Shown in pieces: positions 16,346 through 55,847 of a DNA stretch of 64,000 bases. The stretch comes from Escherichia phage CMS-2020a. The position numbers and the translations under genes are program-made. The DNA lies in the sequence record CP054387.1, one strand, 5' to 3'. Below the pieces are notes generated by a model. The model was not told where the DNA came from. It did not search any database and saw nothing but the letters and a program-made list of their open reading frames with translations. Each line of letters starts with the position of its first letter. The first letter of the stretch is position 1.

Positions 16346-16440
16346 AGATCCCTCTAAAACACACAGAGCGCGTCCATGCGCTCTAAAACAACTTGTTTAC
16401 TGCATCTGCTAACCAACTTGTTTTCTGGGGTGTTTAATTA

Positions 16441-16532
16441 GGTCTGGCATGTCTTACGAAGCCTGCTTCCGTATATATTTAATAAGTTACTTATTATTTA
16501 TATATACAGATGCAGGTCTTTAAATAAGCTCC
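16441..16532. repeat. large imperfect palindrome (GCCTGCTTCCGTATAT, AT-rich core, ATATACAGATGCAGG)
   Basis: Inverted arms at 16461-16477 and 16501-16518 with outer GGTCTGG/CCAGACC; second copy at 47951-48040. Confidence 0.5.
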
Positions 16533-16540
16533 CAGACCGA

Positions 16541-16807
16541 TTACATCACCAGTAACTTCGCTTTGGCTCGACCTAAAGTGGTTAACCCAAGAGTTCGGCG
16601 GTGATAGCGATTGTCACTGCGTTGGCGCGTATGCCCTTTCTCCACCAGCCCCTTTTTTATCAGAGCGCGAATTGAGAACTGGATACTTTGCTTGGTTGTC
16701 TTGTACGGCAAAACTTCAAGCAATTCGTCCAGGTCAAGTAGATGACCTCGCTCATAACCGAGATTGAGCGTTTTGATGATGTCCTTTTGTTTATCGGTTA
16801 ACGTCAT
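16541..16807 (-). CDS. small DNA-binding protein (winged-helix-like, putative)
   Basis: 88-aa basic ORF. Confidence 0.35.
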   Translation of the reverse strand: MTLTDKQKDIIKTLNLGYERGHLLDLDELLEVLPYKTTKQSIQFSIRALIKKGLVEKGHTRQRSDNRYHRRTLGLTTLGRAKAKLLVM

Positions 16808-16816
16808 GGCAAATCC

Positions 16817-17707
16817 TTATGCCGGTAAAGCAATTTCTAACGGTTTATCCAAAGGTTGTTTGTCGAATGCCAGCAATGGCAGCGTGTCAGGCAGTCGACG
16901 ACCAAAGTCAGGGTTTCGATACACACCATACAACGGAGACGTAAAGCTCAGGTTGTGAATGTCCTTGAGCAGCTTCACAATGCTGGCCTCGTCCACCAGA
17001 CTGTCGGCAATGTCCTGAATCGTCGTGCCACGATTCCGCCCAGCTTTTGCCAGGGAACTGTTCTTGTGGTAGTCCGCCACCAGATCACGCAGTGCACGGC
17101 GACGACGAGACTCGCTCATTGCGAACAACTCTTTGACGATCGCCTCGTTATCACCCGTGTCGGAACGGAAATGGCGCTGGAATACACGCAGTGCACTTTC
17201 ATAGCTCTTCGGTCGCTCAGGGCGGATGAACTTAAACCCTGCTTTCATGGCGAAGGGATTGTATTTGCTCATCGAGGACTGGATCTCAATGATTGGCCGG
17301 TCATGCATCCTGCTAACCAGGTTAATCATTCGATAAGAGACGCCTACGCCACGATACTGAGTATCCACAACTGAGCGACTGATCACCGCAAAGTTGTTAT
17401 TCACGTACCGACCCCAGTACTGGTTAGCCACGGTGGTATTAGTGGTTGGTTTCAACTTAGGAAACATGCGGTGGCGAGGTGCCAACAGTAGTTTCGGGTA
17501 AGCCATAACCACGACGCCCACCAGACGATCATCAAGTTCGCAGCGATAGTAAGTTGGCGCGAAAGGTTTGCCGTCTGTTTTGTAGTGAAGCGACTTAAGA
17601 GCGTGCCAGTCCTCTACAGTTCCCTTTGTAACAGTCATTCGCTCCAGAAAGTCCAGATGACGCGGAAACTCTTCAGGGCGGTAGCGTTTAATGATGATGT
17701 CCGTCAT
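16817..17707 (-). CDS. hypothetical protein (296 aa), fourth gene of the ParB/ABC operon
   Basis: Translationally coupled to the ABC ATPase gene (ATGA overlap at 17704-17707); weak GNAT-like YRGVGVS motif only. Confidence 0.5.
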   Translation of the reverse strand: MTDIIIKRYRPEEFPRHLDFLERMTVTKGTVEDWHALKSLHYKTDGKPFAPTYYRCELDDRLVGVVVMAYPKLLLAPRHRMFPKLKPTTNTTVANQYWGRYVNNNFAVISRSVVDTQYRGVGVSYRMINLVSRMHDRPIIEIQSSMSKYNPFAMKAGFKFIRPERPKSYESALRVFQRHFRSDTGDNEAIVKELFAMSESRRRRALRDLVADYHKNSSLAKAGRNRGTTIQDIADSLVDEASIVKLLKDIHNLSFTSPLYGVYRNPDFGRRLPDTLPLLAFDKQPLDKPLEIALPA

Positions 17708-18369
17708 AAATGGACCTCATCATGACTACCATTGTGATATTCCACCTTCACGCGTTCTTTGTAGTGCTTGGTGATCTGCATATCCGGGCGCAGCGCGTTC
17801 TTCAGGTCTTCGTGAGTCGTCGCCACCATTACCGTCGCACCAACCTTTCGAGCGGCACGCTGGAGGTTAGATGCCACAACCTGAGCGGTTACACGGTCTA
17901 GAACAGCACCGAACTCGTCAGCAGCCCACACTTTAGCGCCTGACTCAATCAGTTTGGCAATCTTGAGACGATATTTCTGGCCGTCTGACATTTCAGAAGG
18001 CTTGCGAACAAACAGATATGCATCGTTCAGACCAGCCATAGATAACAACCCAAGCGCATCGCTGGTCGTTTTGCCCAACTGATCGATGACGTTAACCTCA
18101 TTATCGAAGGTAAAATCATCGATGGAGGCTACAGACAGCCCTTCATCCTTCATCTGTCGTTGCAACTCGCGCAGCACAACGGATTTGCCGGAACCGGATT
18201 GGCCGGTGATGTACACCACATCGCCCTGCTTCACTTCCAGCTCCAGATTGTCGTAAAGCGTCCACTCTTTTTCGTCCAGGCCAAGCCCGAACGACTCAGC
18301 GATTTCCAACGTGCGCGTGGTTTTATTTACGCGTGTCTGAAACGATACGTTGATGTTGTATTTGCTCAT
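17704..18369 (-). CDS. stand-alone ABC-type ATPase
   Basis: Walker A GQSGSGKS, ABC signature MSDGQKYRL, Walker B VWAADEFG, H-loop ATTHE. Confidence 0.7.
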   Translation of the reverse strand: MSKYNINVSFQTRVNKTTRTLEIAESFGLGLDEKEWTLYDNLELEVKQGDVVYITGQSGSGKSVVLRELQRQMKDEGLSVASIDDFTFDNEVNVIDQLGKTTSDALGLLSMAGLNDAYLFVRKPSEMSDGQKYRLKIAKLIESGAKVWAADEFGAVLDRVTAQVVASNLQRAARKVGATVMVATTHEDLKNALRPDMQITKHYKERVKVEYHNGSHDEVHL

Positions 18370-19034
18370 GCAGCCATCTCCCCGGAAGAGATCTTCTCCG
18401 CATATGCCACAAATGCGTCTACCCCGCTTTCTCCCGTCATTTCTTCCATATGGGCAAGCAAATCACCAACAACAATGGCAGAGCCAGCAGGGAGAGTTTT
18501 AAAGCCCAATACGTCGACAACACGTACTTCTTCCGCTGCAACTTCACGACTGATCTCGGTGTGTTCATCCTTCTGTCGTTTAGTTTCTTCGCTAAGATCG
18601 ATAACTAGCGAGTCGGTGTCCATTTCTTCTGTCATACTGCCAACGAGAACATTCAACTCACGCTCTTCAAAGCCGAAAACCTCGATATCGTCCAGAACAA
18701 GCGACTCAAGCTCTTTCTGTAGCTTAATTGCATCGTAATCAATGCTGGCAAGTCGGTTATCTTCAAGGCGCTTCGCACGAACCTCGTCATCACTGAGATC
18801 ATCGCGAACAATAACCGGTACACGCTCAAGTCCAGCAAAAATTGCAGCCTCACGGCGGCCGTGGCCAGTAATAATTACGTCGTTCTTATCGACCGTAATT
18901 GGCTGGTCAAATCCGCGCTTTTTAATGGCTGCGGCCAGATCTCTGATCTGCTGTTCATCATGCTTTTTGGCATTCATCTCATAGGGAATAAGATCTGCCG
19001 GGTCGCGATATACGATTTCAAACTTTTTGGTCAT
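18366..19034 (-). CDS. ParB-like nuclease domain protein
   Basis: ParB N-terminal domain pattern (ITGHGRREAAIFAGLERVPVIV); start at ATG 19034 with AAGGAG RBS. Confidence 0.6.
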   Translation of the reverse strand: MTKKFEIVYRDPADLIPYEMNAKKHDEQQIRDLAAAIKKRGFDQPITVDKNDVIITGHGRREAAIFAGLERVPVIVRDDLSDDEVRAKRLEDNRLASIDYDAIKLQKELESLVLDDIEVFGFEERELNVLVGSMTEEMDTDSLVIDLSEETKRQKDEHTEISREVAAEEVRVVDVLGFKTLPAGSAIVVGDLLAHMEEMTGESGVDAFVAYAEKISSGEMAA

Positions 19035-19732
19035 TACATACGCTCCTTGTAGTAGTCGACCAGCCACACTAGAGCCTCACCAGCGTTTTCCATTTCATTG
19101 CCAGTATTAATTGCCTGGTCTTTGATGATGTTTTTTATGGTTTCTGCAACGCGATCTGACGCATCGAAGGTTACTTTGAAGCGCATGGTCTGATGTTCCG
19201 CACCGACACGTTCGGTTTTCTCTCGTTTGTCGGTATCGACAGGCTCATCACTACCACGAGACAACGCCTCCAGTGCTTCAAGGTCGATTGCCGCCTCTTT
19301 TGCTAAAACCATCGAGATTTCGTCGTCATACGGGGCGATTTCAGACAGTTGATAGTCAAGTTCTGACTGAATTTCTTCAATGAAGCGTTGCAATGCGATT
19401 TGGTCGTCTTCACCGTATCGCTCGTTGTCCACCAGTGACATCTGTTTTGCCACGACATCGCTAATTTTGCCCACAGAAAGCACAGGAACCGTTGAAATTC
19501 CTTGCTCAATAGCAGCACGCCAGCGATGTTCGCCGCCGAGGATTTCAAAAAATCCATCTTCAAGCTCACGAGCCAAAATTGGCTTAAAAAAGCCCAATTT
19601 TTCGATAGAACCTTTCAGTTTTTCGAAATTCTGCGCACCAACCGAATTGGTGTTCCAGGTATTCGGGCGAAGGTTGGCAACATCAACCTGCAAAATCGTG
19701 ATTTTTACGTCCATTTTATTGCTACAATCCAC
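19034..19732 (-). CDS. ParB-like nuclease domain protein
   Basis: ParB motif GGEHRWRAA; first gene of the four-gene operon; start uncertain (19732 or 19714). Confidence 0.6.
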   Translation of the reverse strand: MDCSNKMDVKITILQVDVANLRPNTWNTNSVGAQNFEKLKGSIEKLGFFKPILARELEDGFFEILGGEHRWRAAIEQGISTVPVLSVGKISDVVAKQMSLVDNERYGEDDQIALQRFIEEIQSELDYQLSEIAPYDDEISMVLAKEAAIDLEALEALSRGSDEPVDTDKREKTERVGAEHQTMRFKVTFDASDRVAETIKNIIKDQAINTGNEMENAGEALVWLVDYYKERM

Positions 19733-21356: not shown

Positions 21357-21358
21357 TT

Positions 21359-21637
21359 ATGAGTGAAAAGAAAACAACTTATTGCCAAGTGGCATTGTCT
21401 GATAAGGCCAATGAAAAACTTGGAAAATTTCAAATAAAACTCAAAGAGAAAAAAATCAAGATGTCTAAGGCTGAAGTTATCAATGCCATTCTGGAGACGA
21501 TGACTATGGCTGAATTTGACAAAGTCACATCTGCCGTTGGGGTTTCCGCTAAGACGCGTGAGAAAATCATGCGCATCTATGAAAACTCCAATATGACAAA
21601 AAAAGATTTAGAGGAAATACTGAGCAGGTTGCCGTAA
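21359..21637 (+). CDS. hypothetical protein
   Basis: 92-aa ORF immediately after the helicase gene. Confidence 0.4.
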   Translation: MSEKKTTYCQVALSDKANEKLGKFQIKLKEKKIKMSKAEVINAILETMTMAEFDKVTSAVGVSAKTREKIMRIYENSNMTKKDLEEILSRLP

Positions 21638-22918: not shown

Positions 22919-23518
22919 ATGAAAATGAAACTTTCGTTACTCCTTGCTTGCATATACCTCCCGGCGTTTTCCGCCAACGCATTATCAGATTTCGTCTCTG
23001 ACATGCAAAAAACGTACAGCATGTTTACCTCCGAAGACGTAGTAGAATACAAATCACGAGGTCTGAATCAGCCAGTTTGGTTCAGATTCTCAGACAACGC
23101 AGAAGAAACAATACTTAATGGAGGAAAAGAAAGATTACGGTTGCAAATTAACGGGACCGCTGTACCAGAAAACGTTAATGTAAGCTCTGACGAAGCCATG
23201 AAGCCATCTGGAATTGTTTTAGAAGTTCAAGACGGCACACTTTACTGTGATGAAATGGCTACAACAGGTTGCCAAGTAAACATTAGGGTTGGCAATGAAG
23301 ACCCTATCGTTACTTACGCCAAGGCTGAAGGGAATACAAGTGGAAAGGTATTGTTTATCGATGAAAATACCTCAAAACGTATCGTTCGTGACATACAGAA
23401 AACAGCGAACTCTAAATCCGTCGATAAAAAAATCTATGTTGAGGTTCCCTTCTTTGTCGTTGGTAACAAAGAATTTAAATTTGGGTTGCTGAAAACACCT
23501 CTAAGAGTATCAGAATGA
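22919..23518 (+). CDS. secreted/periplasmic protein (signal peptide)
   Basis: N-terminus MKMKLSLLLACIYLPAFSANA then LSD: signal peptide with AxA cleavage site; start placed at the first ATG. Confidence 0.45.
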   Translation: MKMKLSLLLACIYLPAFSANALSDFVSDMQKTYSMFTSEDVVEYKSRGLNQPVWFRFSDNAEETILNGGKERLRLQINGTAVPENVNVSSDEAMKPSGIVLEVQDGTLYCDEMATTGCQVNIRVGNEDPIVTYAKAEGNTSGKVLFIDENTSKRIVRDIQKTANSKSVDKKIYVEVPFFVVGNKEFKFGLLKTPLRVSE

Positions 23519-24039
23519 GAACATTGGACATCACCTACGGCATACCGGCTGAAGTATGGCCGCGAGACTACGAACATGCTGAACGTACCTTGCTCTTCTG
23601 GCGGAAAGCTAAATTTCCTGTCAGAGTCACACTTGAAGATGGTCAGGTGTTTTGCATGTATGTGCAGGGAACAATGTCTTCCCGCAACAAGCTAGATTTA
23701 TGTCCAGCACCGCTTGATAATGACAATCGTATAAGACTCCCACTTGAGCGCATTAGTACAATTGAATCAGGTGTCATTGATGGCATTGCTTACGATTTCA
23801 AAGGGAGACTAACAATACATCCTGACTATGTAGATAACCAGCCATCACGTCGTGACTTTTTTAAGATATGTCGTCAGGCTTACCAAAACGGCAAATCTAT
23901 AAGGGTCTACATGGCAGACGGTCGCGAAATTGAGGGAACGTCAGATGGTGTTGACGCCTGTCTAGTCACACTTAAGTTGGAGGACGGTAGAAAAATACTT
24001 ATTTTCTTCGATTGGGTTGAACGAATCCTTCCGTTCTAA
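23515..24039 (+). CDS. hypothetical protein, possible tandem Sm/Hfq-like fold
   Basis: ATGA overlap with the upstream gene; two internal repeats (VRVTLEDGQVF... and VRVYMADGREIEG...KILIFFDWVERI); terminator follows. Confidence 0.4.
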   Translation: MRTLDITYGIPAEVWPRDYEHAERTLLFWRKAKFPVRVTLEDGQVFCMYVQGTMSSRNKLDLCPAPLDNDNRIRLPLERISTIESGVIDGIAYDFKGRLTIHPDYVDNQPSRRDFFKICRQAYQNGKSIRVYMADGREIEGTSDGVDACLVTLKLEDGRKILIFFDWVERILPF

Positions 24040-25560: not shown

Positions 25561-26097
25561 GTCTTTAACTCACTCCAACAACATAAAAATAAGCGCCAAA
25601 ATAACGCCATAGACGCGCTTTTATATCCTTGTCAGTACATACCCATTACTTAACACATTAACGCGCTTAAAACACGTTATATTGCGCTATAGAGTATGGT
25701 TAATCATTGGCTTTTAGTCTTGCTATGTGATCCGCGTTTATTTGTCGGCGCGGATCGGCATTTTGTTTTGTTCCGTATCCGCTCGCGTATTATGTGCGCG
25801 TGATTTTTCACATAATCACACCACTTAATCACGTATGCGATTACGCTACGAAAGAAATCTGGATGTCTCAGGCGACGAAAGTCATCATAATTTTCCCCGC
25901 TCACCTGTCCGACAACCGCTGGTTGGATTCCACCAGCTTCCCGATGTTTTTTCTACATAAAGGCGAATGCAGCCGTTTCCCGAAAAAATCCTGGCCGTTC
26001 CCCGTCGGTTCATGAATACGTTCCTCGCCGTTTCTGAAAATTTCCCTGCGGCATCTGGTGGCTATAGAGAAAGGGCCGTTACTGGCCCTCTTCTCAG

Positions 26098-26580
26098 TTA
26101 CACGCCATCAAGGATGTGGATGCGGTTGCTTGCGTATACATTCAGCATAAAGTTAGCGCAAAACAGTTTCCATGTATCAACGCCAGCGGTATACGTAATG
26201 TTTTTGCATTTAATTGCATTGTTGGCGATCCGCATCCCCTGCGATACTGCTTCATCGTCGGAAAATTTGAACGACGATTGAGTTTTAATCCAGACAGAAA
26301 TCTGCGTAGCGAACTCAATCAGCTTGGACTGGCAGAATCGCCCGGAGCGCACCGGAAAGACGAACGTTCCGAATCCAGAATTTACCACATACGCTTTCTC
26401 AAATACCCGCGAGTAACGACGATTGCCAATGATGTCGCGTGCAATAATGCATTTTTCTTGTGCTGACAGTTCTACCGTCTCATTGTCGCGCCATGCACCA
26501 AGTACTCGTTTTTCAATGTCAGAGAACGTTACAGCGATATTGCCATGTGCGGGTGCGTTTACAGTAGCGATAAAATTCAT
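26098..26580 (-). CDS. hypothetical protein
   Basis: 160-aa ORF. Confidence 0.4.
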   Translation of the reverse strand: MNFIATVNAPAHGNIAVTFSDIEKRVLGAWRDNETVELSAQEKCIIARDIIGNRRYSRVFEKAYVVNSGFGTFVFPVRSGRFCQSKLIEFATQISVWIKTQSSFKFSDDEAVSQGMRIANNAIKCKNITYTAGVDTWKLFCANFMLNVYASNRIHILDGV

Positions 26581-26930
26581 GATTAATTCCTTATCGTAAA
26601 TAACAAATTGTTTTCTTGTTGGCGTTAATTATCGTTGTACGAATAAGGCGTCAAAGTGGAAAGTTGCGGTAGCCGGACGGGAACAGGTGGGTTTGTCGGT
26701 TGCCTGGAGGTAAGAGGTTGGTGTTTTTAGCCTGCGGGAAACAGGATGGTCATTTAAGGCCACCAGCAGTGGTGGCCTTAATAATTATCGACCGATTACG
26801 CTAAGGATCTTTTCCTCAACTGATTTGTTGTTGCGACTAAACTGCCTTGCGTATCTGATGACAGAAGAGGCGTTTTGCTTTCTGACTATCTCGGCTCTTT
26901 CCTTCAGGCGTTTCTTGAAATCGCCCATAT

Positions 26931-27305
26931 TTACCACCAGGCGCAGAAGGTCAGTCTGTTATTGTGAAAGTCGTGGTTCTTAATCAGCTCTTCCACAAGT
27001 TTTTTCAACTCCCCCACGTCATGCCAGTACCCTTCATCGTACTCCTGACTGCCGAAGAAAAAACCTTCACAGGTAGGTAAGTACTCTTCGCAGTTACTTT
27101 CGTTCATGTGCATCAAATGAGCTTTCAGAGCACAAATGTCATTCATCGTTAATTCTAAAAGCTCACAATTTTTGACTTCACCTACGTTGCGTTCCATCCA
27201 CCCAAAGAGAGCATTGAACTTACGGAAGTAAGCAACCTTCTTTCTGGATGCATCGTTATTCAGATCGTTTTTTGGTTGCGTCTCAATGTAGATATCAAGT
27301 CCCAT
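26931..27305 (-). CDS. hypothetical protein
   Basis: 124-aa ORF, AAACAAnTTGTT motif upstream. Confidence 0.4.
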   Translation of the reverse strand: MGLDIYIETQPKNDLNNDASRKKVAYFRKFNALFGWMERNVGEVKNCELLELTMNDICALKAHLMHMNESNCEEYLPTCEGFFFGSQEYDEGYWHDVGELKKLVEELIKNHDFHNNRLTFCAWW

Positions 27306-27423
27306 GATGGTTTCCTTATCAAGTTGCTTTCAGTGAAAGCATTTTCACAAATCAGATAAGGCAGAAAACAAATTGTTATCGGGCATAAGAAAATGGCGCG
27401 GTTTACGCGCCATTCAAAGAGGA

Positions 27424-27819
27424 TTAAGCGAATACGCTTTCAGGGATTAAGGTGTCAGCAGGAATGCCGGAGGTAATGCGCAGACCATACTGACCAATCC
27501 AGGTAGTGTTAGTGTTCAGACTGGAAGCGAATACGGTGTTAACCATATTCATCATGGTTTCAAACACCTCTTTATTCACCTTACGGAAGTAACTTTCAAT
27601 TTTCAACAACAACGGGTCCGTTGCATCAAAAATGGACTGATATTGCGCCTCATATTCCCCGCCTGATGTATCTCCTTTACGCACAATAGTACTTGCCTGA
27701 ACTTCAGTTCCAGTTTCGGTGTTGTACGTAACGACGGTGATTTTAGCTACATTCTTACCTTCGGCGCTTTCTGAAGCATAGTAGACATCAACTGTCAGGT
27801 TTTCTCGTTTAACGCTCAT
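27424..27819 (-). CDS. hypothetical protein
   Basis: Start at ATG 27819 with RBS GGAGAG. Confidence 0.4.
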   Translation of the reverse strand: MSVKRENLTVDVYYASESAEGKNVAKITVVTYNTETGTEVQASTIVRKGDTSGGEYEAQYQSIFDATDPLLLKIESYFRKVNKEVFETMMNMVNTVFASSLNTNTTWIGQYGLRITSGIPADTLIPESVFA

Positions 27820-27944
27820 ATCACTCTCCATAGTGTCTTGGTTATTTTTCTATTTTATAGACATAGGTATGTACTTACAATACAAAAAACCCCGTAAGGA
27901 TGGCGGGGCTGTCGTACTGTCGACTAATTACCACTTGCACATTA

Positions 27945-28256
27945 TCAGGCTATTGCCATCACTGATGCTCTCTGAATCTCTTGCTGGGCCACGCGGTTAA
28001 CTTCCATCAAAGCCAGTTCGAGCTGATGTTCCGGCCACATTCTTTGAAATGCCATCCAGCCTTTTCCACGCTGGCGACGAACATTCATTACATAACGAGT
28101 AAAGGTGTTTTTATCGAAAGACACCGCTGTTTCACGGAACAGACGAATAGAGGTTCCATTGGCAACGATGTCCAGCAAAGTTAATTGAGCAACCAGTGCA
28201 GGCTTCTCTTTTCTCTTCTGGTCTTTGTCCAGACCAAGAACCAATGATTTTTTCAT
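27945..28256 (-). CDS. hypothetical protein
   Basis: Start at internal ATG 28256 preceded by GGAG and the palindromic motif. Confidence 0.4.
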   Translation of the reverse strand: MKKSLVLGLDKDQKRKEKPALVAQLTLLDIVANGTSIRLFRETAVSFDKNTFTRYVMNVRRQRGKGWMAFQRMWPEHQLELALMEVNRVAQQEIQRASVMAIA

Positions 28257-28267
28257 CACAACTCCGT

Positions 28268-28283
28268 AAACAACTTGTTTTCT
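28268..28283. promoter_or_regulatory. palindromic motif family 1 (AAACAA-N-TTGTTT), representative copy
   Basis: AAACAACTTGTTTTCT about 12 nt upstream of the start at 28256; similar copies at 16385, 26600, 27363, 28753, 31183, 31223, 35160, 40279, 44826, 45555, 55773. Confidence 0.5.
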
Positions 28284-28410
28284 CAATGGCGTAAATAATA
28301 CCAGTAAGAAAACGGCTACAAAGCATATTGATCAGGCGCATGAGCGATATGCAGGTTCTTCCCTGCGGCTACAGATGAAGTTAAGCCAGCAATGCTGGCT
28401 TTGGTTGGGC

Positions 28411-28740
28411 TTACGCGAATATCGCAAGGAAGTCCTGAACGTCCCAATGCTGGACGAGGTGAAGATAGACCTTAGAAATCACGTCATTTTCGCTATCGCA
28501 TGTGAAGTAGTACTTCTGGCTGCGGTTGTATGTGTCCACACAAAATTCGCTCATATCCATAAAGTCAGCATCTTCACCCATGTCGCAAATCATCAAAGCA
28601 GGTGCGTCATCACGAGTCATCAGCTCCAGCACCCATCTTGAATTAATCAGAGTGGAAGACCAACCTTCCAGCTCATAAAACTGGTCAAACTCTTTTTGAG
28701 TCAATTTCTTAATTTGGTTGATGTCGATATTTGCAAACAT
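28411..28740 (-). CDS. hypothetical protein
   Basis: Start at ATG 28740 (RBS AAGGA); motif copy immediately upstream. Confidence 0.4.
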   Translation of the reverse strand: MFANIDINQIKKLTQKEFDQFYELEGWSSTLINSRWVLELMTRDDAPALMICDMGEDADFMDMSEFCVDTYNRSQKYYFTCDSENDVISKVYLHLVQHWDVQDFLAIFA

Positions 28741-28878
28741 AAAGCAATCCTTAAACATGTTGTTTTCTGAATTACGTAAACAATACCAGTAAGAAAACGG
28801 CCACAAAGTATATCGTTACGGTGCTACGCTGCCCCGAGGTTAATAGCGACAAAAGCCACCGTGCTGGTGGCCTCACTC

Positions 28879-29097
28879 TTAATCTTGGTCGTCCGGGAAC
28901 TCGCTGTGTACCGCGCCCACCAGCTCCCGCTTTTCATCTTCACTCAGCAGGTGCCAGATATCCTTCCCTTTGGGCGATTCCCCTTCTGCCGGGACGAACG
29001 ACCACAACTTGCGGTACAACTCCGGCCCCACTGCATCCAGACACTCAGCCAGGGAATCCACGCCCCACACCTCAACCGTCACAGGCATCTTAATCAT
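28879..29097 (-). CDS. hypothetical small acidic protein
   Basis: 72-aa ORF. Confidence 0.3.
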   Translation of the reverse strand: MIKMPVTVEVWGVDSLAECLDAVGPELYRKLWSFVPAEGESPKGKDIWHLLSEDEKRELVGAVHSEFPDDQD

Positions 29098-29749
29098 CTC
29101 TTCATCCTCACTTCGTTTCTATAACGTCTAAATATGCTGTTTACTTGTTGGTGTTATTATCGCAATAAGATAAAGGCGAAAAAGGATTTTATGTCGGGAA
29201 AGCCAGGCTGGGCAGTGAATATCCGGGAACGACACGAGAGCCAGTATTTACGATATTCTGCTCTACGCGCGCCGCGGGGCTGGTGGGTAGAATAATCCTC
29301 TCCCCGAAAACCTACTGAAATCGATTGTGACCCGCTGGCTGTCTGGCACAATTACGCTGTATCTGGCATTCAGAGGGAATCCAGCGGTAAGCAAGTCAGC
29401 CTGCACGTGAGCGCCTCTCTTCTTCCCGCACATTACAGGTGGGTAGCTGCAACTCTCTCGCTATACCGGTACGCCGCCGTTCCTGAACCGGCATCGAGCC
29501 TTTTCCCGAAATCCACACAGGCAACTCGACCGTTTCCCTGAAAATCCCCAGCCGTTTCTGTAGCGTATGCAACCTTTTCTCTGTATGGACCGAAGGCTGA
29601 CCGTAGGGGTGTTACGGGGGGTGATGGTAAGATGTTGAATAAATACGAAAAAGGAGGCGACACACCTCCTTCCCTCTCCACTTATACATACCTGGCTTCT
29701 TCGCTATACATGTTGTGTTTTATCTGTCTCAACCTCTCTATAGGCGTTA

Positions 29750-40346: not shown

Positions 40347-40727
40347 CTAATTGCCGTATAAAATGGGGTGAGGTGCTTGCCAGTAGGCTCCACCGGTCCA
40401 TGTGAACCCCATGCGAATAAGAGTGTTTATTGCGGCTTTGGTAGACTCCGATTCGACACTGGCTTTACGAAACTCTTGAACCTCTTTCGCCAACCTGTAT
40501 GTAATTGTGCAGGGGACGATTGCAGCCCAGCCTTTCTCATGACTGTTAATGACCATCTGGATGTGACCATCCAGAATAGGTTGATTAGACATGTTATTGA
40601 AAATGTCTGCCTGTTTTTGAATGTGAAGAAAAAGCCTTGCCAGCTCCATTTGCTCACTACGAGACAAGGGATTATCAAGAGGGCTTTTTGCAAAAGCGGC
40701 TATACGCTGTGCGTCAATGCCAAACAT
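40347..40727 (-). CDS. hypothetical protein
   Basis: 126-aa ORF. Confidence 0.35.
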   Translation of the reverse strand: MFGIDAQRIAAFAKSPLDNPLSRSEQMELARLFLHIQKQADIFNNMSNQPILDGHIQMVINSHEKGWAAIVPCTITYRLAKEVQEFRKASVESESTKAAINTLIRMGFTWTGGAYWQAPHPILYGN

Positions 40728-41431: not shown

Positions 41432-41492
41432 ATGTTTTTCTCTTATCGTTTAGTTATTACATTCTTACACAAATTAAGTAAGTATTTACCTA

Positions 41493-43178
41493 TCATTTAA
41501 CGCGTTTGAAAACGTATACGCTGACTGTGATCCCTGTGTCTTCAAACTCGTTGGTAAACGACTTCCCTCTGGCATAAACGTAATTATCCATCGTCATCCA
41601 GTCCAGTATTGGCGCAGTGCCCGGCAATACTGCTACAAGACGCCCGCCGACTTTCAGATGCCCCAGCGCAGCCAGCGTGTGCTCTCTATGACGACCAAGC
41701 GAGTACGGCGGGTTCATAACGATTTTGTCGAACTGATAACCTGCGTTGTCCTCAGACCACTTTATGAAGTCGCAGCAAATCGTGTTCGTATACCCTTTTC
41801 CACGCAGGATATCAGCGAAGAGAGGTGCGATTTCTATGCAGGTAACATCTTCCAGATCGGCGTTAATATAGGCCAGAAGATCCCCACGTCCGGCTTGAGG
41901 CTCCAACAGCTTCTCACCAGGCTTCAATTCAGTGGCTCTGGCAACGTACTCAGCAATCAAGCGTGGGGTAGGGTAGAACTGGTGTGATTTTGTATCCGGT
42001 ATTAAACCGGTAGCCACAATCGTATTTAGCGTATGGCCGATCTCATACGGGAACTGCCAGTGCTTTTTCTCCTGCACGCCGCCAATGAAGCTCAGTGTGC
42101 GCTCAAGCTCTTCCACCTGCGACTTCTGGAGAGCTGAATCAGAGAAGTACCATACGCCTTTGTCTTTGCTCAATCGCCCGTCACGAAGCGCAGTGCGAAC
42201 CGGCACGGAGATCGTCTTCTGGATTAACCCGAACTGCTTTGGTGCCCGTGTTTTTGGCGCAGTTCGGCATGGCGCGGGGATTGCAGCAGGCATACTGTAA
42301 GCCAGCACCTCATTCAACTTCCAGGCCACGTCAGGATGTATTTCAAAGTGAACGTTGCCGTTCTTGAACATCTTCACGCGCATCAGATTTCCATCGACGT
42401 TCATCCAGTCACCGGTCTGGCAGTCGTTTGCCCGATACGCAGCTGATAGCACCTCAGCAGTGCGGTTGATGGTAATAAATTCTTTGTGCGCGAAGAAATG
42501 AAGCAAGACACGCAGATCGTCGATGTAGTCCTCTTTGCGATAGTTCACGCTAACGCTGTCACGCCAGAAATCAGAAATGCAGTCAGCGATTATCAGACGC
42601 TCGCTGAAACCGTTTGTCTTATTTGTCTTGTGCGCAGGACTCAGCGCCTTAAACAAGCCATACACGCGCTCAGAGAGATATTTGTGCCTGTCATTCAGCA
42701 AATTAAGCATCGTTGGTATGACCGTTTCTGCTTTGAACTCCGGTACACCAACGAACTCTTTAACCTTCATCTGATAGCCGGTTCTGTCAGTTTTGATGAC
42801 TTCCTGCTTGCCCTCGATAAATAGCTCACGCCACTCGTCGCGACGGGAAGCTGGCATGATCAGCAGAACGTTAGTCATATCCGTAACCTTCCTCCAGTAC
42901 TCGGCCCAAATATTCTGTTTCACCCATTCCAGATCGACGTTATCCAGCCAGACTCGATTCAAACGTGAGCGATCTTCATCTGGTCGGTGGTTTAGTCGAA
43001 GCAGGCGATTAATCATGTTGTGGCGTTCATCGCCATAAACGAAGTCGTGTACCTGATACATGAAGGAGATCTCTTTCTCGCACTCGGCCACAATTTCGTG
43101 GATGACGTTCATTTCCTGTCGATAGTCGATAGCAGTGTTTGAGCTGGCATCGCCCATGATGGAAAGGGCTGTATTCAT
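41493..43178 (-). CDS. DNA N6-adenine methyltransferase with a large N-terminal domain of unknown function
   Basis: C-terminal half has SAM motif LLEPQAGRGD followed by catalytic VMNPPYS; about 400 N-terminal residues unassigned. Confidence 0.55.
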   Translation of the reverse strand: MNTALSIMGDASSNTAIDYRQEMNVIHEIVAECEKEISFMYQVHDFVYGDERHNMINRLLRLNHRPDEDRSRLNRVWLDNVDLEWVKQNIWAEYWRKVTDMTNVLLIMPASRRDEWRELFIEGKQEVIKTDRTGYQMKVKEFVGVPEFKAETVIPTMLNLLNDRHKYLSERVYGLFKALSPAHKTNKTNGFSERLIIADCISDFWRDSVSVNYRKEDYIDDLRVLLHFFAHKEFITINRTAEVLSAAYRANDCQTGDWMNVDGNLMRVKMFKNGNVHFEIHPDVAWKLNEVLAYSMPAAIPAPCRTAPKTRAPKQFGLIQKTISVPVRTALRDGRLSKDKGVWYFSDSALQKSQVEELERTLSFIGGVQEKKHWQFPYEIGHTLNTIVATGLIPDTKSHQFYPTPRLIAEYVARATELKPGEKLLEPQAGRGDLLAYINADLEDVTCIEIAPLFADILRGKGYTNTICCDFIKWSEDNAGYQFDKIVMNPPYSLGRHREHTLAALGHLKVGGRLVAVLPGTAPILDWMTMDNYVYARGKSFTNEFEDTGITVSVYVFKRVK

Positions 43179-43281
43179 AATTGCACCATTAAGAAATGAT
43201 TTGTTTAATGATGCAATTATTTCAAAAATAAAAAGGTGCTAAATAGAAATTAACAGGCAATACTTAAAATAAAGGCATTGA

Positions 43282-43956
43282 CTAATCATACTTGGATGTA
43301 TTTATAACCAGGACTTTATTTGTATATAGTTTTTTTACATTCCATGTAACATTACTTGAATACCATTCACCATTATATATTTGGTTTCCCGTTGCGCCTG
43401 TCATTGTTACGTATACAGGTCTGTCGTAAGGTGTTCGTCTATAGTTATATACTCCAACCATTGCAGGCATTATCGCACACGGGTATCCCATATTTATGGT
43501 AAATTGAGGATTTGTAATAGTGATAATCTCTGCATCAAGGGGCATCATCTCACCGTGATATACCATTTTACCTGCGCTATTATACATGGCAATACCATAT
43601 CCTGAATGTGGTAACACCATATCAGAAAAAGCATAAACTGTTATCGTTCCGGGGTTTCCTCCAACCTGATTCAGTCTGAGAACATTATACCCATCTCTAA
43701 ATTCATGAACGAACATCATATTCGCCTTATTACTGCTTTTTATAAAGAAAAAACATGATTTGTTCGACGGTATTGAAGTCTTAAAAACAGAACCTTTAGA
43801 CGTGGACATTGTCCCCCTATTAATCAAATTTTGCGGTGTAAATTCTGGACTCATCCACACATTACCATTTGACTGAGTAATTGACATCCCGAACATTATT
43901 GTTATCCCCAATATGTATATATATAAGATCCAAGTCCCTTGTATAAATTTGACCAA
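43282..43956 (-). CDS. hypothetical membrane/secreted protein, low-GC accessory gene
   Basis: N-terminal hydrophobic segment WILYIYILGITIMFGM; AT-rich; overlaps ORF 43902-44183 in another frame (possible frameshift). Confidence 0.3.
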   Translation of the reverse strand: MVKFIQGTWILYIYILGITIMFGMSITQSNGNVWMSPEFTPQNLINRGTMSTSKGSVFKTSIPSNKSCFFFIKSSNKANMMFVHEFRDGYNVLRLNQVGGNPGTITVYAFSDMVLPHSGYGIAMYNSAGKMVYHGEMMPLDAEIITITNPQFTINMGYPCAIMPAMVGVYNYRRTPYDRPVYVTMTGATGNQIYNGEWYSSNVTWNVKKLYTNKVLVINTSKYD

Positions 43957-44237
43957 CTTACTGTATTGCCGTTAATAGTGATAGTTGGTGTAGGTATATT
44001 TACATGGTTATCGTTATTTAAAGGCATCAATGAGCACACAGCATGTAATGATTTGCCAGGTGGTGGATTTGGGTAAGTCTTAGAGCCTGACGTGGTTGTA
44101 AATCGATCAAGAAAAAAAATAGGAGTAAGGAAGCCGGTAACGTTAACTCCCTTATTATTGTAGATCCCTGTACCGTATGCCATTTTTCATCCTTGTTTTT
44201 ATCAACATAATATGGCCGATCATGCGGCCATATCAGA

Positions 44238-44807
44238 TCAATTAGAGCTTTGAAAGGCTTTGTGTGGCTGTGTTGCGAGGTTATGTCGATGGCTTAACTC
44301 ACGCATCATGTCTTCAAGGCGACTCTTTGTGTCGTCGAGTTGGTCAGCCATTGCTCCTAAAAGCTGACGAACTACCATCGGATCGTCGCTGTTTAGTGAT
44401 GGCATTTTATAACCCGCCTGAGAAGACATCAGATTGAATGCTGACATCAACATCGTTAGAGAGGATTTAAGCCCGGCAATTTCACGATCTTTGCTGGCAA
44501 TAATCGTCTCACTTTTGTTACTGTCATGAGTTCCTTGAGTCTCGATCACCATATCCAAAGTCTCTTGCAACTTATCAGCTCTCTGTTTTTCAGCAAGATA
44601 ATGAACACCGAAATGATGTGCTAAAGCTACAACCTGAGTTGGCTCTTCAAAGGTGGACTCAAAATTAAGTGCTGTAACCACTCTCTCAAAAATGGAAACG
44701 TCTTCTATTCCTCGAAGAATGGCTAACATTTTGACAAGTTCATTAGCATCCATTTCTTCGAATAGGGCGTTTTGTTCATCAGCTATTGCTTTGCATTTCT
44801 CGCACAT
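44238..44807 (-). CDS. hypothetical protein
   Basis: 189-aa ORF; AAACAAGTTGTTTTCT motif upstream. Confidence 0.4.
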   Translation of the reverse strand: MCEKCKAIADEQNALFEEMDANELVKMLAILRGIEDVSIFERVVTALNFESTFEEPTQVVALAHHFGVHYLAEKQRADKLQETLDMVIETQGTHDSNKSETIIASKDREIAGLKSSLTMLMSAFNLMSSQAGYKMPSLNSDDPMVVRQLLGAMADQLDDTKSRLEDMMRELSHRHNLATQPHKAFQSSN

Positions 44808-45104
44808 ATGTTTTCCTTAATGCTTAAACAAGTTGTTTTCTTATTGGCTTTATTGTGATGTGGCATAAAAGGGGAGCAAGCTAAACGTAAAGGTGCAAAC
44901 TCTCTATTTCGGTCAACGAAACACAATGGCCATTTGACCCTTGTCATTAACACGTTGCTTTACGGACTAGCGGATAAGCGAAGTAGATCGCCAGACCAAT
45001 GAGGACGCCATCAGAAATGACAGACATCATCTTTCCCGTAAAATCCACCAACACCGCCATCACCAGAAGAGCAATGACGGTCACAAGCCGGAATCTCTCA
45101 AGCA

Positions 45105-45530
45105 TTAGAGATAAGCATCCAGTGACAACTGAAGCGCCTGGGCGATCTTTTTCAGCGCCTGCTCTTCTGGTTCATCAATGCCGTCTTGGTCGGCAATATC
45201 AAGGCACAGACAAAGTACATCTACTGCATCATCAGTCCCGGCCACATCCGCCAGCTCACGTAAAGCCTGGGCATTAGCACGGCGCGGTGAGGCTTCGTAT
45301 TGAGCGCGGATATTGGCGCTCATCTGGGCAATCTCACCAGCAAAAGGAGAAAATGCAGGCAGAGCTGCAATTGTTTTCTCAAGAATGGAAATTTCTTTTG
45401 CATCGCATGTACCGTTGGCATAGGAGATCATGTACCCACCCCACACGGTGGCTTCAACCGCATCACGGTTCTCCATTTTTTTGACTTCGATAACTGCTTT
45501 ACGAGTTTTCTTTTTGAAGAAACCTAACAT
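45105..45530 (-). CDS. hypothetical protein, possibly TerB-like
   Basis: 141 aa; weak TerB-like pattern; motif copy upstream. Confidence 0.3.
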   Translation of the reverse strand: MLGFFKKKTRKAVIEVKKMENRDAVEATVWGGYMISYANGTCDAKEISILEKTIAALPAFSPFAGEIAQMSANIRAQYEASPRRANAQALRELADVAGTDDAVDVLCLCLDIADQDGIDEPEEQALKKIAQALQLSLDAYL

Positions 45531-45623
45531 GTGTTTTCCTTTTGTTATTGGTCAAAACAAGTTGTTTTCTAGTTAAATAAATTGCTTACGCAAAGACGGT
45601 CAATGCATATGCACTAACAACCG

Positions 45624-45812
45624 TCAGAAATAACCAAGTACCGAACCGACTGGAAAAATAAAAATCCCAACTACACGAGCCAAGGTCATGCCAGCCTGAA
45701 ACTGGAGATCGCCAGAGCAAACAAGTTTTATAATGTTCGATACCCAACCGGCGGCCATGAGGGCAAGAATTGCCAGCCAAATTTTTCCAAAGTGATTTGA
45801 AAACCAGTTCAT
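45624..45812 (-). CDS. small membrane protein (two predicted TM helices)
   Basis: 62 aa, hydrophobic (IWLAILALMAAGWV and VVGIFIFPVGSVLGYF). Confidence 0.35.
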   Translation of the reverse strand: MNWFSNHFGKIWLAILALMAAGWVSNIIKLVCSGDLQFQAGMTLARVVGIFIFPVGSVLGYF

Positions 45813-45821
45813 ACAACCGCC

Positions 45822-46337
45822 TTAGTCACAGCATGATCCTGAGTAACTGGATGAACTTGAGGTATCGCATCCACCGTCATCCCATCCAGAGTGACAGGTC
45901 GCTCTACTGGAGTGGTGGTAATTGTCGTCGACGGAGGTGTGGTGATGGATGAATCCGGCATCAAAAGGCTCTGACCGGCTGGAACGGCTACCGTCGCCAG
46001 TGAAACTATAATGAGAACGTAGGCCATTGGTTTCAGCCTCTTTCTTTGAAAATTTTCCATTCGAACTGTCCTTGTTGTTTTTCTCCTTCACTAAAGGCCG
46101 TGCATTTTTCGCTTCGCGTGAAGAACCAGAGGCAACAATCGCCCACACGTTCGCAACAACTGACGCTTGATTATCTAAACGTTCATTCAGCAACCGAACG
46201 GTAGTCTCTAGTTCATCAAGGCGTGACATAACACGACCGCTAAATAATTCGGCCAAAATTTGACGTAAAGAACGAGGACGTTTAGTTACAGAAGTGAAAT
46301 AGGTTTGACGTGCCATGTGGACTCCATCCAGTGTCAT
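45822..46337 (-). CDS. hypothetical protein (3' portion uncertain)
   Basis: 171-aa ORF; N-terminal 90 aa look protein-like, C-terminal Ser-rich part overlaps alternative ORF 45809-46060 encoding a signal-peptide protein. Confidence 0.3.
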   Translation of the reverse strand: MTLDGVHMARQTYFTSVTKRPRSLRQILAELFSGRVMSRLDELETTVRLLNERLDNQASVVANVWAIVASGSSREAKNARPLVKEKNNKDSSNGKFSKKEAETNGLRSHYSFTGDGSRSSRSEPFDAGFIHHHTSVDDNYHHSSRATCHSGWDDGGCDTSSSSSYSGSCCD

Positions 46338-52380: not shown

Positions 52381-52381
52381 A

Positions 52382-53485: not shown

Positions 53486-53652
53486 AAAACCTCACGAAGA
53501 TAAGTAATCAATTATTTATCACGTGAGTTTACATTCATTGATAAAACAAGACCAGATAGATAAAAAATGGTGGCCATAGGCCACCAAAAAGAATAGTCGT
53601 TCCAGAGTTTTATACGCAAATCAAATATACATTAGTAGATAATCACCTACAA

Positions 53653-54522
53653 TTATTTTTTGATCATTCCGTACATTGCTGAGGCTTTAGCTTGCTCAAC
53701 AAAGGAGGATAAATCGACATCACTATAGGTTGGAGACTTCAGAATCTTTCCATCGGAAATTCGAAAACCGATCATCTTATCGGTGCCATCAGCATGGCGA
53801 AATCCCAGGTCTGAAGAGTCGTATTTGCAGTTGGCCACAGCCTGGCGACGTTCCTCTACATCAGCAGGCCATAATTTTGTCATGTTAGACCGATGAATTT
53901 CGCCAACCAGCTCGACTACATTGATACCGAGGAAATCAGCCAGTCGATAGGTCATCATGCACGCCACATAGATTTTGTTCATGACACGGCGCAGTTCCTG
54001 AATCAGCTCAGAATCCTTAACAGTCTTGTTCTCAAGTTTATCTGCCAGCTCTTCGAGCATACATGACGCCTCACGAGCTTCCTGAAATGGCATTGCCATA
54101 TCATCGAAAACAGTGTTACCGGGCACAAAAATTGTCTGCATAAAGCGATCAATGCTCTGTTCCTGCGTGTAATAGGTCATGCCGGTAGAAATACCACCTT
54201 TGATGGCGACCATCGTACCAACACCAACGTATAAAAAGTCGGCCATTGCATCCAGCAGTTGCTCAATATCCCCATTCATTGCAGCTGGAATACCTTCCAC
54301 TACAGCTTCTTCATGAATCAGGCTTGCACGGAGACGAAGCAGCTCTGGTGTCGGCATAACGCGTCTCGGATGCTGGAAGAGTTCATGAAACTGATCGACC
54401 ATCTTGTAAATACTTTCAGTAGCTACACCATGACCTTCATGCAACTCATATGGTTCTGGCTTAAATCCAATGAGACGATCGGTGGCAAGTTTCAGGTGGT
54501 CAGTCAGTTTGGTAAAGTTCAT
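53653..54522 (-). CDS. hypothetical protein, possibly MazG/HisE-like nucleotide pyrophosphohydrolase
   Basis: All-alpha, EE-rich segments; start at ATG 54522 (RBS AAGGA); weak call. Confidence 0.3.
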   Translation of the reverse strand: MNFTKLTDHLKLATDRLIGFKPEPYELHEGHGVATESIYKMVDQFHELFQHPRRVMPTPELLRLRASLIHEEAVVEGIPAAMNGDIEQLLDAMADFLYVGVGTMVAIKGGISTGMTYYTQEQSIDRFMQTIFVPGNTVFDDMAMPFQEAREASCMLEELADKLENKTVKDSELIQELRRVMNKIYVACMMTYRLADFLGINVVELVGEIHRSNMTKLWPADVEERRQAVANCKYDSSDLGFRHADGTDKMIGFRISDGKILKSPTYSDVDLSSFVEQAKASAMYGMIKK

Positions 54523-54599
54523 GCTAGTTTTGTTCCTTCTTAATTCTTGTGATCCATTGTGGCCCAGCGTTGCCAGGTCACATAATGCTTTGTATCGGT

Positions 54600-55742
54600 T
54601 CACAGGTCTGCAAACTGGCTTAGAGAAGCCTTGTCCACGGTAGAATCGATCTGACCTACCAGATATGTGCTTTGCTCTGCCTCTTGTGGTGCAATTTGCA
54701 GTGTGTCGGTTAACAACCACTTGTTCATCCAGACCAGCGGATCGGTGGTAACCTCTGGAAATAAAGCCTTCAGGCCAAGACGATTCATAGCCAGATTGGT
54801 GCGGTATTTTACATAGGTCTTCAAAATATCCGCGTTTAAACCAATCATCGAACCGTCTTTGAAGAGATACTCGGCCCAGTTCATTTCTTGTTCGGCGACT
54901 GATTTCATGGTGTCGTAAATGACGTTTTCTTCATCAGCAGCAATCTCTTTCCACAATAAACCTTCGCGACCGGTACGCATGAAGCGGATCATGCGTTCAG
55001 TTCCTTCGCAATGCAGAGCTTCATCACGGGCAATAAAGCGCATAATTTTGGTGTTACCCTCAAGCAACTTCCGTTCGCCAAAGGCAAACGTACATGCAAA
55101 ACTTACATAGAAACGGATCGCCTCAAGCGCATTAATGGACACCAACGTGCGGAAAAGCTGACGGTGCAAAGGATATGGCTCCCAGCCATATTCATTTACG
55201 TACAGACGCTCAAATTCCTTCTCGCCTAACGACTGGCGCTCGCAGGTCATCCCATAAAGCCTGTCATATTCAGCAGAGATACTGATCGCTCGGTTGATGA
55301 TTTCTTCATCCGTAACAATACCGTCAAAAACAATGCTCGGATCGTCCACCATGCCACGAATAATGTGGGTGTAGCTGCGGCTATGGATAGTCTCAGAGAA
55401 AGACCATGTTTCAACCCACGTTTCCAGTTCAGGAATAGAGATAAGCGGCAGCAGCGTTGCATTTGGGCTACGTCCCTGAACTGAATCGAGTAACGTTTGA
55501 TAACGGAGATTGCTCAGAAAAATGTGACGTTCGTGGTCCCGCAGCTTCGTGTTGAAGTCGATACGATCGCTCGAAATATCAACTTCTTCCGGCCGCCAGA
55601 AGAAAGACAATTGACGTTCAATCAACTTTTCAAAATCACGGTATTTTTGCTGATCGTAACGTGCCACGTTGACAGATTGTCCGAGGAACATAGGCTCTTT
55701 GGTTGCATCATTAGCACCCAAACGGAACGTTGAATATGACAT
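54600..55742 (-). CDS. nrdB: ribonucleotide reductase class Ia beta subunit
   Basis: Very close to recalled E. coli NrdB (MSYSTFRL...RPEEVD...[15 protein letters not shown]...[13 protein letters not shown]...ARDEALH); start at ATG 55742. Confidence 0.9.
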
Positions 55743-55847
55743 GTGTTTTTCCTTTTGCTTTTTGATGTGTTTAAACAAGTTGTTATCCTATTTGTTTAAA
55801 CAAGGCTTACAAATCAAAGAGAAGGTGGGGATACACCCCACCATATG

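Follow-up and report, generated by a model that had tools for sequence, protein, structure and literature searches.

The 64,000-nt stretch of Escherichia phage CMS-2020a analyzed here (sequence record CP054387.1; hereafter, the window) contains a short palindromic motif, AAACAA-N-TTGTTT, at a set of dispersed, mostly intergenic positions. We regard this motif, with a probability of roughly 0.6, as an operator at which a repressor, either dimeric or a dimer of dimers, would shut dispersed sigma-70-type promoters of an SSU5-like phage-plasmid. The reading is based on the palindromic core with its free center, the position of the sites over +12 or the -35 region of putative promoters, the placement of paired sites on the same helical face, conservation above that of the flanks, and the silence of the downstream genes in a lysogen. 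The window is assigned to the SSU5-like group because of its matches: 94% of the 20-kb segment from 26000 to 46000 aligns with Escherichia phage PhiR41_1 at 97.7% identity, and this segment is also 95% identical to phage Cyrano (plasmid pLF82 in E. coli LF82) and has blocks in common with Salmonella phage SSU5 and Klebsiella phage-plasmids. Positions 1 to 16345 hold a late structural operon on the minus strand. From 16.5 to 64 kb, almost every gene is likewise on the minus strand; these are ParB-like and accessory genes and genes for nucleotide metabolism and recombination. A plus-strand low-GC island occupies 19.8 to 25.5 kb.

The exact 13-mer core, AAACAANTTGTTT, occurs 7 times in the window versus 0.02 expected, a count reached in none of 100 shuffles; with one mismatch allowed, it is found in 14 places. 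The 16-mer AGAAAACAANTTGTTT gives 22 strand-matches at up to two mismatches (0.32 expected), and the most common 9-mer of the window is AGAAAACAA, with 15 copies. The core is also the sole recurrent perfect palindrome of two 6-bp arms around a gap (7 copies, compared to a maximum of 2 in shuffles). Enrichment over a shuffled background, which the first-pass annotation had named as the check on its proposal, is thus evident. All 12 copies listed in that annotation are present, with small coordinate corrections (the copy placed at 31183 spans 31174 to 31189), and there is an extra one at 16411. The non-coding count was made after the gene map had been corrected by the PhiR41_1 and Cyrano annotations: with a score matrix built on AGAAAACAANTTGTTT and a cutoff score of at least 16, 14 of 15 sites fall in non-coding DNA, which makes up 12.6% of the window. 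Counting strong sites only, the matrix gives 14, with 13 of them non-coding. Of the 38 intergenic gaps that are 50 bp or longer, 12 contain the motif. It is therefore a recurrent, intergenic palindrome found above chance, as is typical of repressor operators. The sole strong match in coding DNA (positions 21369 to 21384, plus strand; AGAAAACAACTTATTG, score 20) covers codons 4 to 9 of a gene for a 92-aa protein and may be due to chance.

On the AGAAAACAA strand, the invariant positions are A-G-A-A/T-A-A-C-A-A and, after a free central base, T-T-G-T-T-T. The core is a perfect palindrome, yet one arm is three bases longer. The fully symmetric form AGAAAACAA-N-TTGTTTTCT given in the first-pass annotation is wrong in this respect, as the mirror TCT is not conserved and the AGA extension occurs on just one arm, which faces the -10 hexamer in both of the site classes described below.

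Class A comprises nine sites, at 16386, 16411, 26601, 28268, 28753, 31174, 44826, 45555, and 55773. On the gene-sense strand, these show a -10-like hexamer (mostly GATAAT or TATTAT), 10 to 11 nt that often read aCaCCAaCA, the motif, a ribosome-binding site (RBS), and the start codon; the distance from motif to start codon has a median of 19 nt and a minimum of 11 nt. Among 30 class A sites from three genomes, 18 have the hexamer 10 to 11 nt upstream. If this hexamer is the -10 element, the motif would cover positions +4 to +19 or so, with its center near +12, and occupy most of the 5' leader. Class B includes four sites (27363, 31222, 35160, and 40280), which are inverted, directly follow the terminator hairpin of the upstream gene, and lie 16 nt before a GAAAAT or GATAAT hexamer, in two cases with an upstream TG. 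Their centers would fall near -38 of the next promoter, that is, over its -35 region. Accordingly, the earlier statement that the copies precede minus-strand start codons with the RBS in between holds for nine copies (11 to 65 nt from the start codon) but not for the four class B copies, which are 60 to 120 nt from the next start codon. Because of the placement of class B right behind terminator hairpins, some copies are fused to a GGCCAC...GTGGCC hairpin, and the two such fusions are found at 35174 to 35198 and 40296 to 40316. The promoters linked to the motif are putative, assigned from the fixed -10 hexamers only; a sigma-70 consensus scan does not call them and finds no overall enrichment, and their -35 regions are weak.

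The two classes also occur together, as an A+B pair around a single GATAAT. Its class A half (31174 to 31189, minus strand) is 13 nt upstream of the ATG of a DUF5983 gene (30861 to 31160), and its class B half occupies positions 31222 to 31237 on the plus strand. The GATAAT hexamer, read directly at 31200 to 31205 on the minus strand, is preceded at 16 nt by the class B site and followed at 10 nt by the class A site. The site centers are 51 bp apart in the window, in Cyrano, and in SSU5. Between the metG terminator and this class B site, at 31239 to 31267, there is also a direct repeat, AGGGATTGTGT, with two copies 18 bp apart.

The other class A sites are all on the minus strand. Two of them belong to the terS leader: a promoter-distal copy at 16386 to 16401 (AGTAAACAAGTTGTTT), kept in Cyrano, SSU5, pMT1, and Klebsiella, and a second copy 25 bp away, at 16411 to 16426 (AGAAAACAAGTTGGTT), that adjoins a TAATTA -10-like hexamer. 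The site at 26601 to 26616 has GATAAT 11 nt upstream and the ATG of gene 26098-26580 20 nt downstream. Those at 28268 to 28283 and 28753 to 28768 are preceded at 11 nt by TATTAT and TATTGT and followed by ATG codons at 28256 (11 nt downstream) and 28740 (12 nt), respectively. At 44826 to 44841, the motif lies 10 nt after CACAAT and 18 nt before the ATG at 44807; at 45555 to 45570, it is 24 nt upstream of the ATG of a TciA-like gene (45105 to 45530); and at 55773 to 55788 (GGATAACAACTTGTTT) it is located between nrdA and nrdB, with the nrdB ATG 30 nt downstream.

The remaining class B sites are on the plus strand. The one at 27363 to 27378 follows a hairpin at 27394 to 27412 and stands 16 nt before the TGtGAAAAT of the gene 26931-27305 promoter. 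The site at 40280 to 40295 (AGAAAACAATTTATTT), fused to the hairpin at 40296 to 40316, has the same TGtGAAAAT at the same distance, upstream of gene 39666-40208. The site at 35160 to 35175 is fused to the hairpin at 35174 to 35198 (minus strand; TTAAGGCCAC-N5-GTGGCCTTAA), which ends gene 35213-35776 and is followed by the T-rich arm of the motif; this site is 16 nt before GAAAAT, upstream of a umuD-like gene. The latter, which encodes a peptidase S24 family protein (34651 to 35040), has just upstream of it, at 35057 to 35076, a perfect LexA box (TACTGTGTAAATGAACAGTA) overlapping a TATACT hexamer and therefore appears to have a separate promoter under SOS control, located downstream of the class B site.

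These geometries suggest how repression might work. At class A promoters, a protein bound right after a good -10 would block open-complex formation or promoter escape, in the manner of Lac repressor at O1, and at class B promoters the operator, centered at about -38, would lie over the -35 region. At the A+B promoters, 51 bp corresponds to approximately five helical turns, which would put both sites on the same face of the helix, so that cooperative binding would be allowed.

The same layout could, in principle, arise without any binding protein, if the motif were part of a duplicated promoter/leader cassette that combines an initial-transcribed sequence with an A/U-rich translational enhancer before the RBS and has spread by module duplication. 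We consider this rather improbable. It is true that the class A motif makes up almost the whole 5' leader, 11 to 24 nt from the ATG, that TTGTTTAAGGAG resembles U-rich enhancer leaders, and that the flanks share sequence as well (GCCgTTTTCTTA...GATAAT...aCaCCAaCA), which suggests common descent of the cassettes. Further, elements from Pectobacterium (plasmid Drgb1) and Moellerella keep just the left arm, AAGAAAA(C), after the -10. However, the class B copies are inverted and located upstream of the -10, hence outside the leader of the following gene, and a translational enhancer needs no perfect 6+1+6 palindrome in which the center is free and both arms are invariant. This explanation also does not fit the preservation of the motif where both flanks diverge or the conserved 51-bp pairing.

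Indeed, comparison with related elements shows that the motif is the best-conserved part of its promoter regions and is kept as the flanks drift. In eight orthologous pairs from the window and SSU5, identity is 0.91 in the 16-mer, 0.65 to 0.72 upstream, and 0.51 and then 0.31 downstream, and the differences inside the 16-mer are mostly at the free central base. In matrix scans of whole genomes, the number of strong sites is about 20 for the 108-kb Cyrano genome and about 21 for the 103-kb SSU5 genome, and the 28-kb structural operon is free of them; the sites beyond the window coverage precede parA, the gene for a DnaB-type helicase, cobT, and one other gene. The motif is retained at orthologous promoters (the terS leader, parA, dnaB, cobT, nrdB, and many accessory genes) in Cyrano, SSU5, Klebsiella phage pJN2-26, Klebsiella plasmid NZ_CP101792, and Yersinia pestis pMT1. 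There are 11 strong sites in 40 kb of pJN2-26; the more distant NZ_CP101792 carries the motif at about 12 accessory promoters as well as at parA, dnaB, and the terS leader; and pMT1 retains the terS-leader sites plus one more (2 to 3 sites). The putative regulon would accordingly consist of accessory and early genes, nrdB, and the late terS leader in the window, and of parA, dnaB, and cobT beyond it. Assignment of the motif to early and accessory genes in the first-pass annotation was too narrow, as it left out the late terS operon, parA, dnaB, and cobT. In the Drgb1 plasmid and a Moellerella plasmid, the compact palindrome is absent, and the parA promoters have the arms AAGAAAACAA and GGTTTTCTT about 30 bp apart.

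This phyletic pattern also bears on the origin of the binding protein. The motif is identical in elements from Escherichia, Salmonella, Klebsiella, and Yersinia and altered in those from Pectobacterium and Moellerella, as might be expected if its binder were a host transcription factor that Enterobacteriaceae and Yersinia share, the element being plugged into a host regulon. The retention of sites in pMT1, which lacks the leading element-encoded candidate discussed below, points the same way. Still, we consider a host factor quite unlikely. No E. coli regulator that recognizes such a consensus is known to us, the 13-mer was not found in the literature searched, and a 16-mer scan of a viral-contig collection shows that, among the matches listed, all multi-site contigs are about 90 to 112 kb long, which is the size of the SSU5 family.

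Expression data for the plasmid state come from transcriptome sequencing (RNA-seq) of the LF82 lysogen, which covers all Cyrano genes and in which the median background value is 9.8 (table S1 of PMC9928086). The first genes behind the motif show values of 7.1 (terS), 21 (dnaB), 7.8, 5.7, 12.9 (nrdB), 7.0, 7.1, 6.3, 7.5, 12.8, 12.2, 5.7, 6.7, and 25.5 (PMC9928086), with a median of 7.5. Since these genes are near background, the motif-bearing promoters appear to be essentially off in the plasmid state. The parA operon, at 50 to 89, is the main exception among the motif-bearing operons (PMC9928086).

Silence of the downstream genes would equally be seen if the motif were the recognition element of an activator or a promoter-specificity factor made early in infection, in the absence of which promoters with weak -35 regions stay off in the lysogen. 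The failure of the sigma-70 scan to call these promoters agrees with this idea, and class B centers near -38 approach the position of class II activators. It is nevertheless an improbable explanation, as 9 of the 13 sites are centered near +12, where activators do not act, and the window has a better activator-type element in the form of a second palindrome, AAGTAA-N4-TTACTT, that abuts the -10 at about -22.

Three observations weigh against the repressor-operator reading. The asymmetry of the motif, with AGA on a single arm, is not explained by a plain symmetric dimer. The parA operon is expressed despite the presence of a site, which is what would be expected for an autoregulated maintenance operon. 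Finally, the silence in the lysogen could come from activator dependence rather than repression, because the -35 regions are weak and escape the consensus scan. The first-pass annotation had viewed the motif as an operator for a dimeric phage regulator or a conserved promoter element. Its association with promoters, the palindromic core, the two fixed geometries, the 51-bp pairs, conservation in five lineages, and lysogen silence fit the first of these options, and the view as a whole is supported in part.

A role at the RNA level is not supported. Leaders with a single site fold no better than their shuffles (z about 0), an Rfam search of the leaders matched no family, and the 1-nt spacer of the palindrome is too short for a hairpin loop. 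Given the lack of both leader structure and an Rfam family, a DNA-level role fits best, and an RNA role is unlikely also because the class B copies stand outside the leader of the following gene. In the terS leader, the two motif copies are able to pair with each other in RNA (z = -2.2). Between these copies and the terS RBS, the leader contains a separate hairpin, AGAGCGC-N6-GCGCTCT (16365 to 16384, minus strand), with GTGTGTTTT after it. Its 7-bp G+C stem is kept in SSU5, pJN2-26, and pMT1, and in NZ_CP101792 the stem is formed by other sequence (GGCGTC...GATGCC). This hairpin may be an attenuator or terminator for the late genes.

The second palindrome, AAGTAA-N4-TTACTT, has 14 matches in the window with up to two mismatches, versus 2.8 expected. 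Its 16-mers are found at 1851, 8349, 12936, 16484, 19734, 41476, 46448, 48667, 53502, and 62895, before tail genes, in the terS region, in the divergent region between ParB and helicase genes, and before thyX, sbcD, and a methylase gene. It is located 0 to 5 nt upstream of a -10-like hexamer, with its center at about -22 and no -35 element, as in AAGTAATCACTTACTTatTATAAT at 19734. The two motifs occupy different gaps, with the terS leader alone having both, and related forms of the second palindrome are present in Klebsiella NZ_CP101792 and Pectobacterium Drgb1. It probably marks a class of activator-dependent middle and late promoters; the existence of such a separate class strengthens the view of the first motif as a distinct repressor-controlled set. 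In NZ_CP101792, the first motif is accompanied by many copies of GATAAGTAA..TTACTTATC in the replication module and inside the late operon, and a LexA box precedes the integrase gene.

One of the closest known systems is P1, another enterobacterial plasmid prophage, where a single repressor, C1, binds operators scattered around the genome beside the promoters it shuts (PMC8198154). Dispersed operators, putative here, and a separate class of activator-dependent late promoters, probable here, are common to both elements. However, P1 is a myovirus, and the element studied here is of the unrelated SSU5 siphovirus type. The C1 operator is an asymmetric 17-mer, ATTGCTCTAATAAATTT, whose 17-bp consensus has no matches in the window at up to three mismatches, and there is no C1 homologue among the window proteins scanned. 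The lac O1 operator offers a positional parallel only: it is palindromic and centered at about +11/+12, right after the -10 and within the leader. Its sequence is unrelated, and no LacI-family protein is found here.

In plasmids RK2 and RP4, 12 OB sites (TTTAGC-S-GCTAAA) are bound by KorB, a partition-ATPase partner that doubles as a global repressor. The OB site is likewise a 13-bp palindrome with two 6-bp arms and a free central base and is present in about 12 promoter copies on the plasmid. The window encodes two ParB_N-domain proteins (19034 to 19732 and 18366 to 19067), and the shared 6+1+6 architecture raises the question of whether the motif might be their dispersed centromere and silencing sites, in the manner of KorB sites in RK2. 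This appears very improbable. In the lysogen, the two genes are at or below background (CYRAN_119, 5.0; CYRAN_120, 9.5), so that, unlike KorB, a ParB-family helix-turn-helix protein, the ParB_N proteins are not expressed there. They belong to an operon just upstream of terS, away from parA. The motif itself has no sequence match to the KorB site, and the OB sequence TTTAGCSGCTAAA has one 2-mismatch match in the window, inside the tape-measure gene, as by chance. Besides, OB sites do not occupy +12 but are located upstream of promoters or far away from them.

Two further comparisons concern partition systems. In the ParG (TP228) and omega (pSM19035) systems, the gene for a small ParA precedes one for a small protein with a basic tail, the parA promoter holds the operator, and half-sites have a tight 7-bp spacing; omega controls several promoters of its plasmid. 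The element resembles these systems in gene order, its small ParA having 222 aa, and in half-site spacing, and it has one motif site at the parA promoter. It differs in that its sites, found at about 20 promoters across 100 kb, are single or paired instead of forming arrays of 4- to 7-bp repeats clustered at few promoters, and searches give no support for a ribbon-helix-helix fold in its putative adaptor. N15, a linear phage-plasmid, has four dispersed SopB centromere palindromes near phage promoters that influence phage gene expression. Palindromes are scattered through phage genes in both elements, with the partition link being hypothetical here, but N15 uses a type Ia SopAB system with 16-bp sopC-type repeats at 4 sites compared to about 20. 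The motif matches none of these systems in sequence; by function, it is most probably the operator set of a plasmid-prophage global repressor.

The leading candidate for this repressor, which we put forward tentatively and with more doubt than confidence, is a 119-aa protein (CYRAN_29 in Cyrano, SSU5_034 in SSU5) encoded beyond the window right after the small ParA gene, which might act like the ParG and omega partition adaptors. The preceding gene, CYRAN_28, also beyond the window, codes for a 222-aa ParA that matches the AAA_31, MipZ, and CbiA families. A small Walker-type ParA with no N-terminal DNA-binding domain is thus followed by a gene for a small putative adaptor, and in type Ib partition systems such an adaptor normally also represses its operon. 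At the parA promoter of Cyrano, SSU5, and NZ_CP101792, no palindrome other than the motif is present, with one site just after the -10 in each; in Drgb1 and Moellerella, the arms are split. CYRAN_29 expression in the lysogen is 9-fold above background, and its putative strand (IKSRTMS) and second helix (FTRSDVIRAAI) do not vary even where overall identity falls to 49%. This ParA partner is found in 797 PLSDB plasmids from the same genera. In addition, half-site centers lie 7 bp apart, a spacing that is shorter than helix-turn-helix dimers usually have and that agrees with omega-type ribbon-helix-helix dimers bound next to each other.

Other data speak against this candidate. Sequence and profile searches in Pfam and PDB give no match for the ParA partner, hhalign comparison with ParG yields a probability of 0.1%, and the ribbon-helix-helix pattern is discernible by eye only. 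The AlphaFold monomer is poor (predicted local distance difference test score [pLDDT], 64), with a disordered N terminus and then two helices, and a Foldseek search with this model is empty. The site at parA is a single one and not part of an array. Plasmid pMT1 lacks the ParA partner (there is no Yersinia match in PLSDB) yet keeps its 2 to 3 sites. It is because of this and the lack of search support for the fold that confidence in the candidate stays low. A search for the ParA-partner cassette outside phage-plasmids gave just an IS-disrupted fragment.

The binder suggested in the first-pass annotation, the 88-aa product of the minus-strand gene at 16541 to 16807 (orthologue, CYRAN_123), is a credible DNA binder because of its predicted MarR-like fold. 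The model (pLDDT, 84) is a minimal winged helix whose nearest structures are MepR, MarR, and AdcR (Foldseek E values of about 1e-4). As a binder of the first motif it is an unlikely choice, since CYRAN_123 is expressed at background (7.8) and since Drgb1, where the compact palindrome is absent, has the same recognition helix. The protein suits the second palindrome better, because that palindrome is conserved even in Drgb1. Reading of the second palindrome by this protein is possible, as its recognition helix is invariant in all elements with related forms.

More doubtful still is the 92-aa protein encoded at 21359 to 21637 on the plus strand, a weak candidate whose N terminus looks ribbon-helix-helix-like by eye. 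Its orthologue, CYRAN_117, reaches 114 in the lysogen versus the background of 9.8. No tool supports a ribbon-helix-helix fold (hhalign, 2.4%), and the residues that would face DNA differ between clades with an identical motif. Another element-encoded or host protein is possible and is ranked last. The annotated repressor of Cyrano, CYRAN_45, encoded beside the integrase gene and beyond the window, is unlikely to bind the motif: there is no motif in its own divergent intergenic region, and SSU5, which lacks that module, keeps the full regulon. Iterons of IncFIB RepA are also rejected, as there is no motif near repA.

Several other features of the window deserve mention. A stretch of about 800 bp, 29750 to 30550, displays extreme strand asymmetry: on the plus strand, GC skew reaches +0.53 and AT skew falls to -0.66. 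Its gene-sense strand is C/A-rich, no convincing open reading frame was found in it, and it contains four TGGGTAATGGC-type repeats. It is bounded by a class A-like promoter with half a motif (30494 to 30509) and a strong terminator (29648 to 29674); an Rfam search of the stretch found no match. It could represent a long non-coding RNA or a replication origin. A weak motif site (TGAAAATAAGTTGTTT, score 16; 30285 to 30300, plus strand) is located in this stretch and occupies the same place in SSU5 and Klebsiella pJN2-26.

In the plus-strand island, where the GC content is 38 to 39%, the gene at 23515 to 24039 encodes a 174-aa protein of the Pfam family Flag1_repress (FljA, repressor of phase-1 flagellin; E = 9e-80). 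Because of this match, the phage-plasmid may be able to turn off host flagellin through an FljA-like protein. The window also has two cargo genes that are rare in phages. One codes for a full-length methionyl-tRNA synthetase (31322 to 33355, minus strand); the other, on the opposite strand (33513 to 34613, plus), codes for an Mrp/NUBPL-type iron-sulfur P-loop ATPase (Pfam ParA, PF10609; E = 2e-102) and shows a value of 92 in the LF82 lysogen, against the background of 9.8.

Global-repressor operators of plasmid prophages are a known kind of regulatory element, and the set described here would be a new instance. Among the SSU5-like phage-plasmids are pHCM2 of Salmonella Typhi and pMT1 of Y. pestis, along with Klebsiella, Enterobacter, and E. 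coli plasmids that number in the hundreds; their marker proteins are found in about 800 PLSDB records. Clinical isolates commonly harbor members of this widespread but little-studied family, and resistance genes are present on some of them. In a review of how phage-plasmids are regulated, no regulator is named for the SSU5-type group. A more far-reaching model, which we offer as speculation and think unlikely in full, is that the partition adaptor is the master silencer of the phage program, acting at about 20 single or paired sites over 100 kb (early, accessory, replication, and late genes) that would at the same time serve as dispersed centromeres. Segregation and lysogeny would then form one circuit, with adaptor loss or titration by copy number leading to lytic growth, and the second palindrome would mark activator-dependent middle and late promoters, possibly read by the 88-aa MarR-like protein. 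A defined operator provides a handle for finding the regulator, a map of the regulon, and a means to predict immunity shared among relatives. If the regulator is indeed the partition adaptor, plasmid segregation would be tied to the control of lysogeny in these elements.

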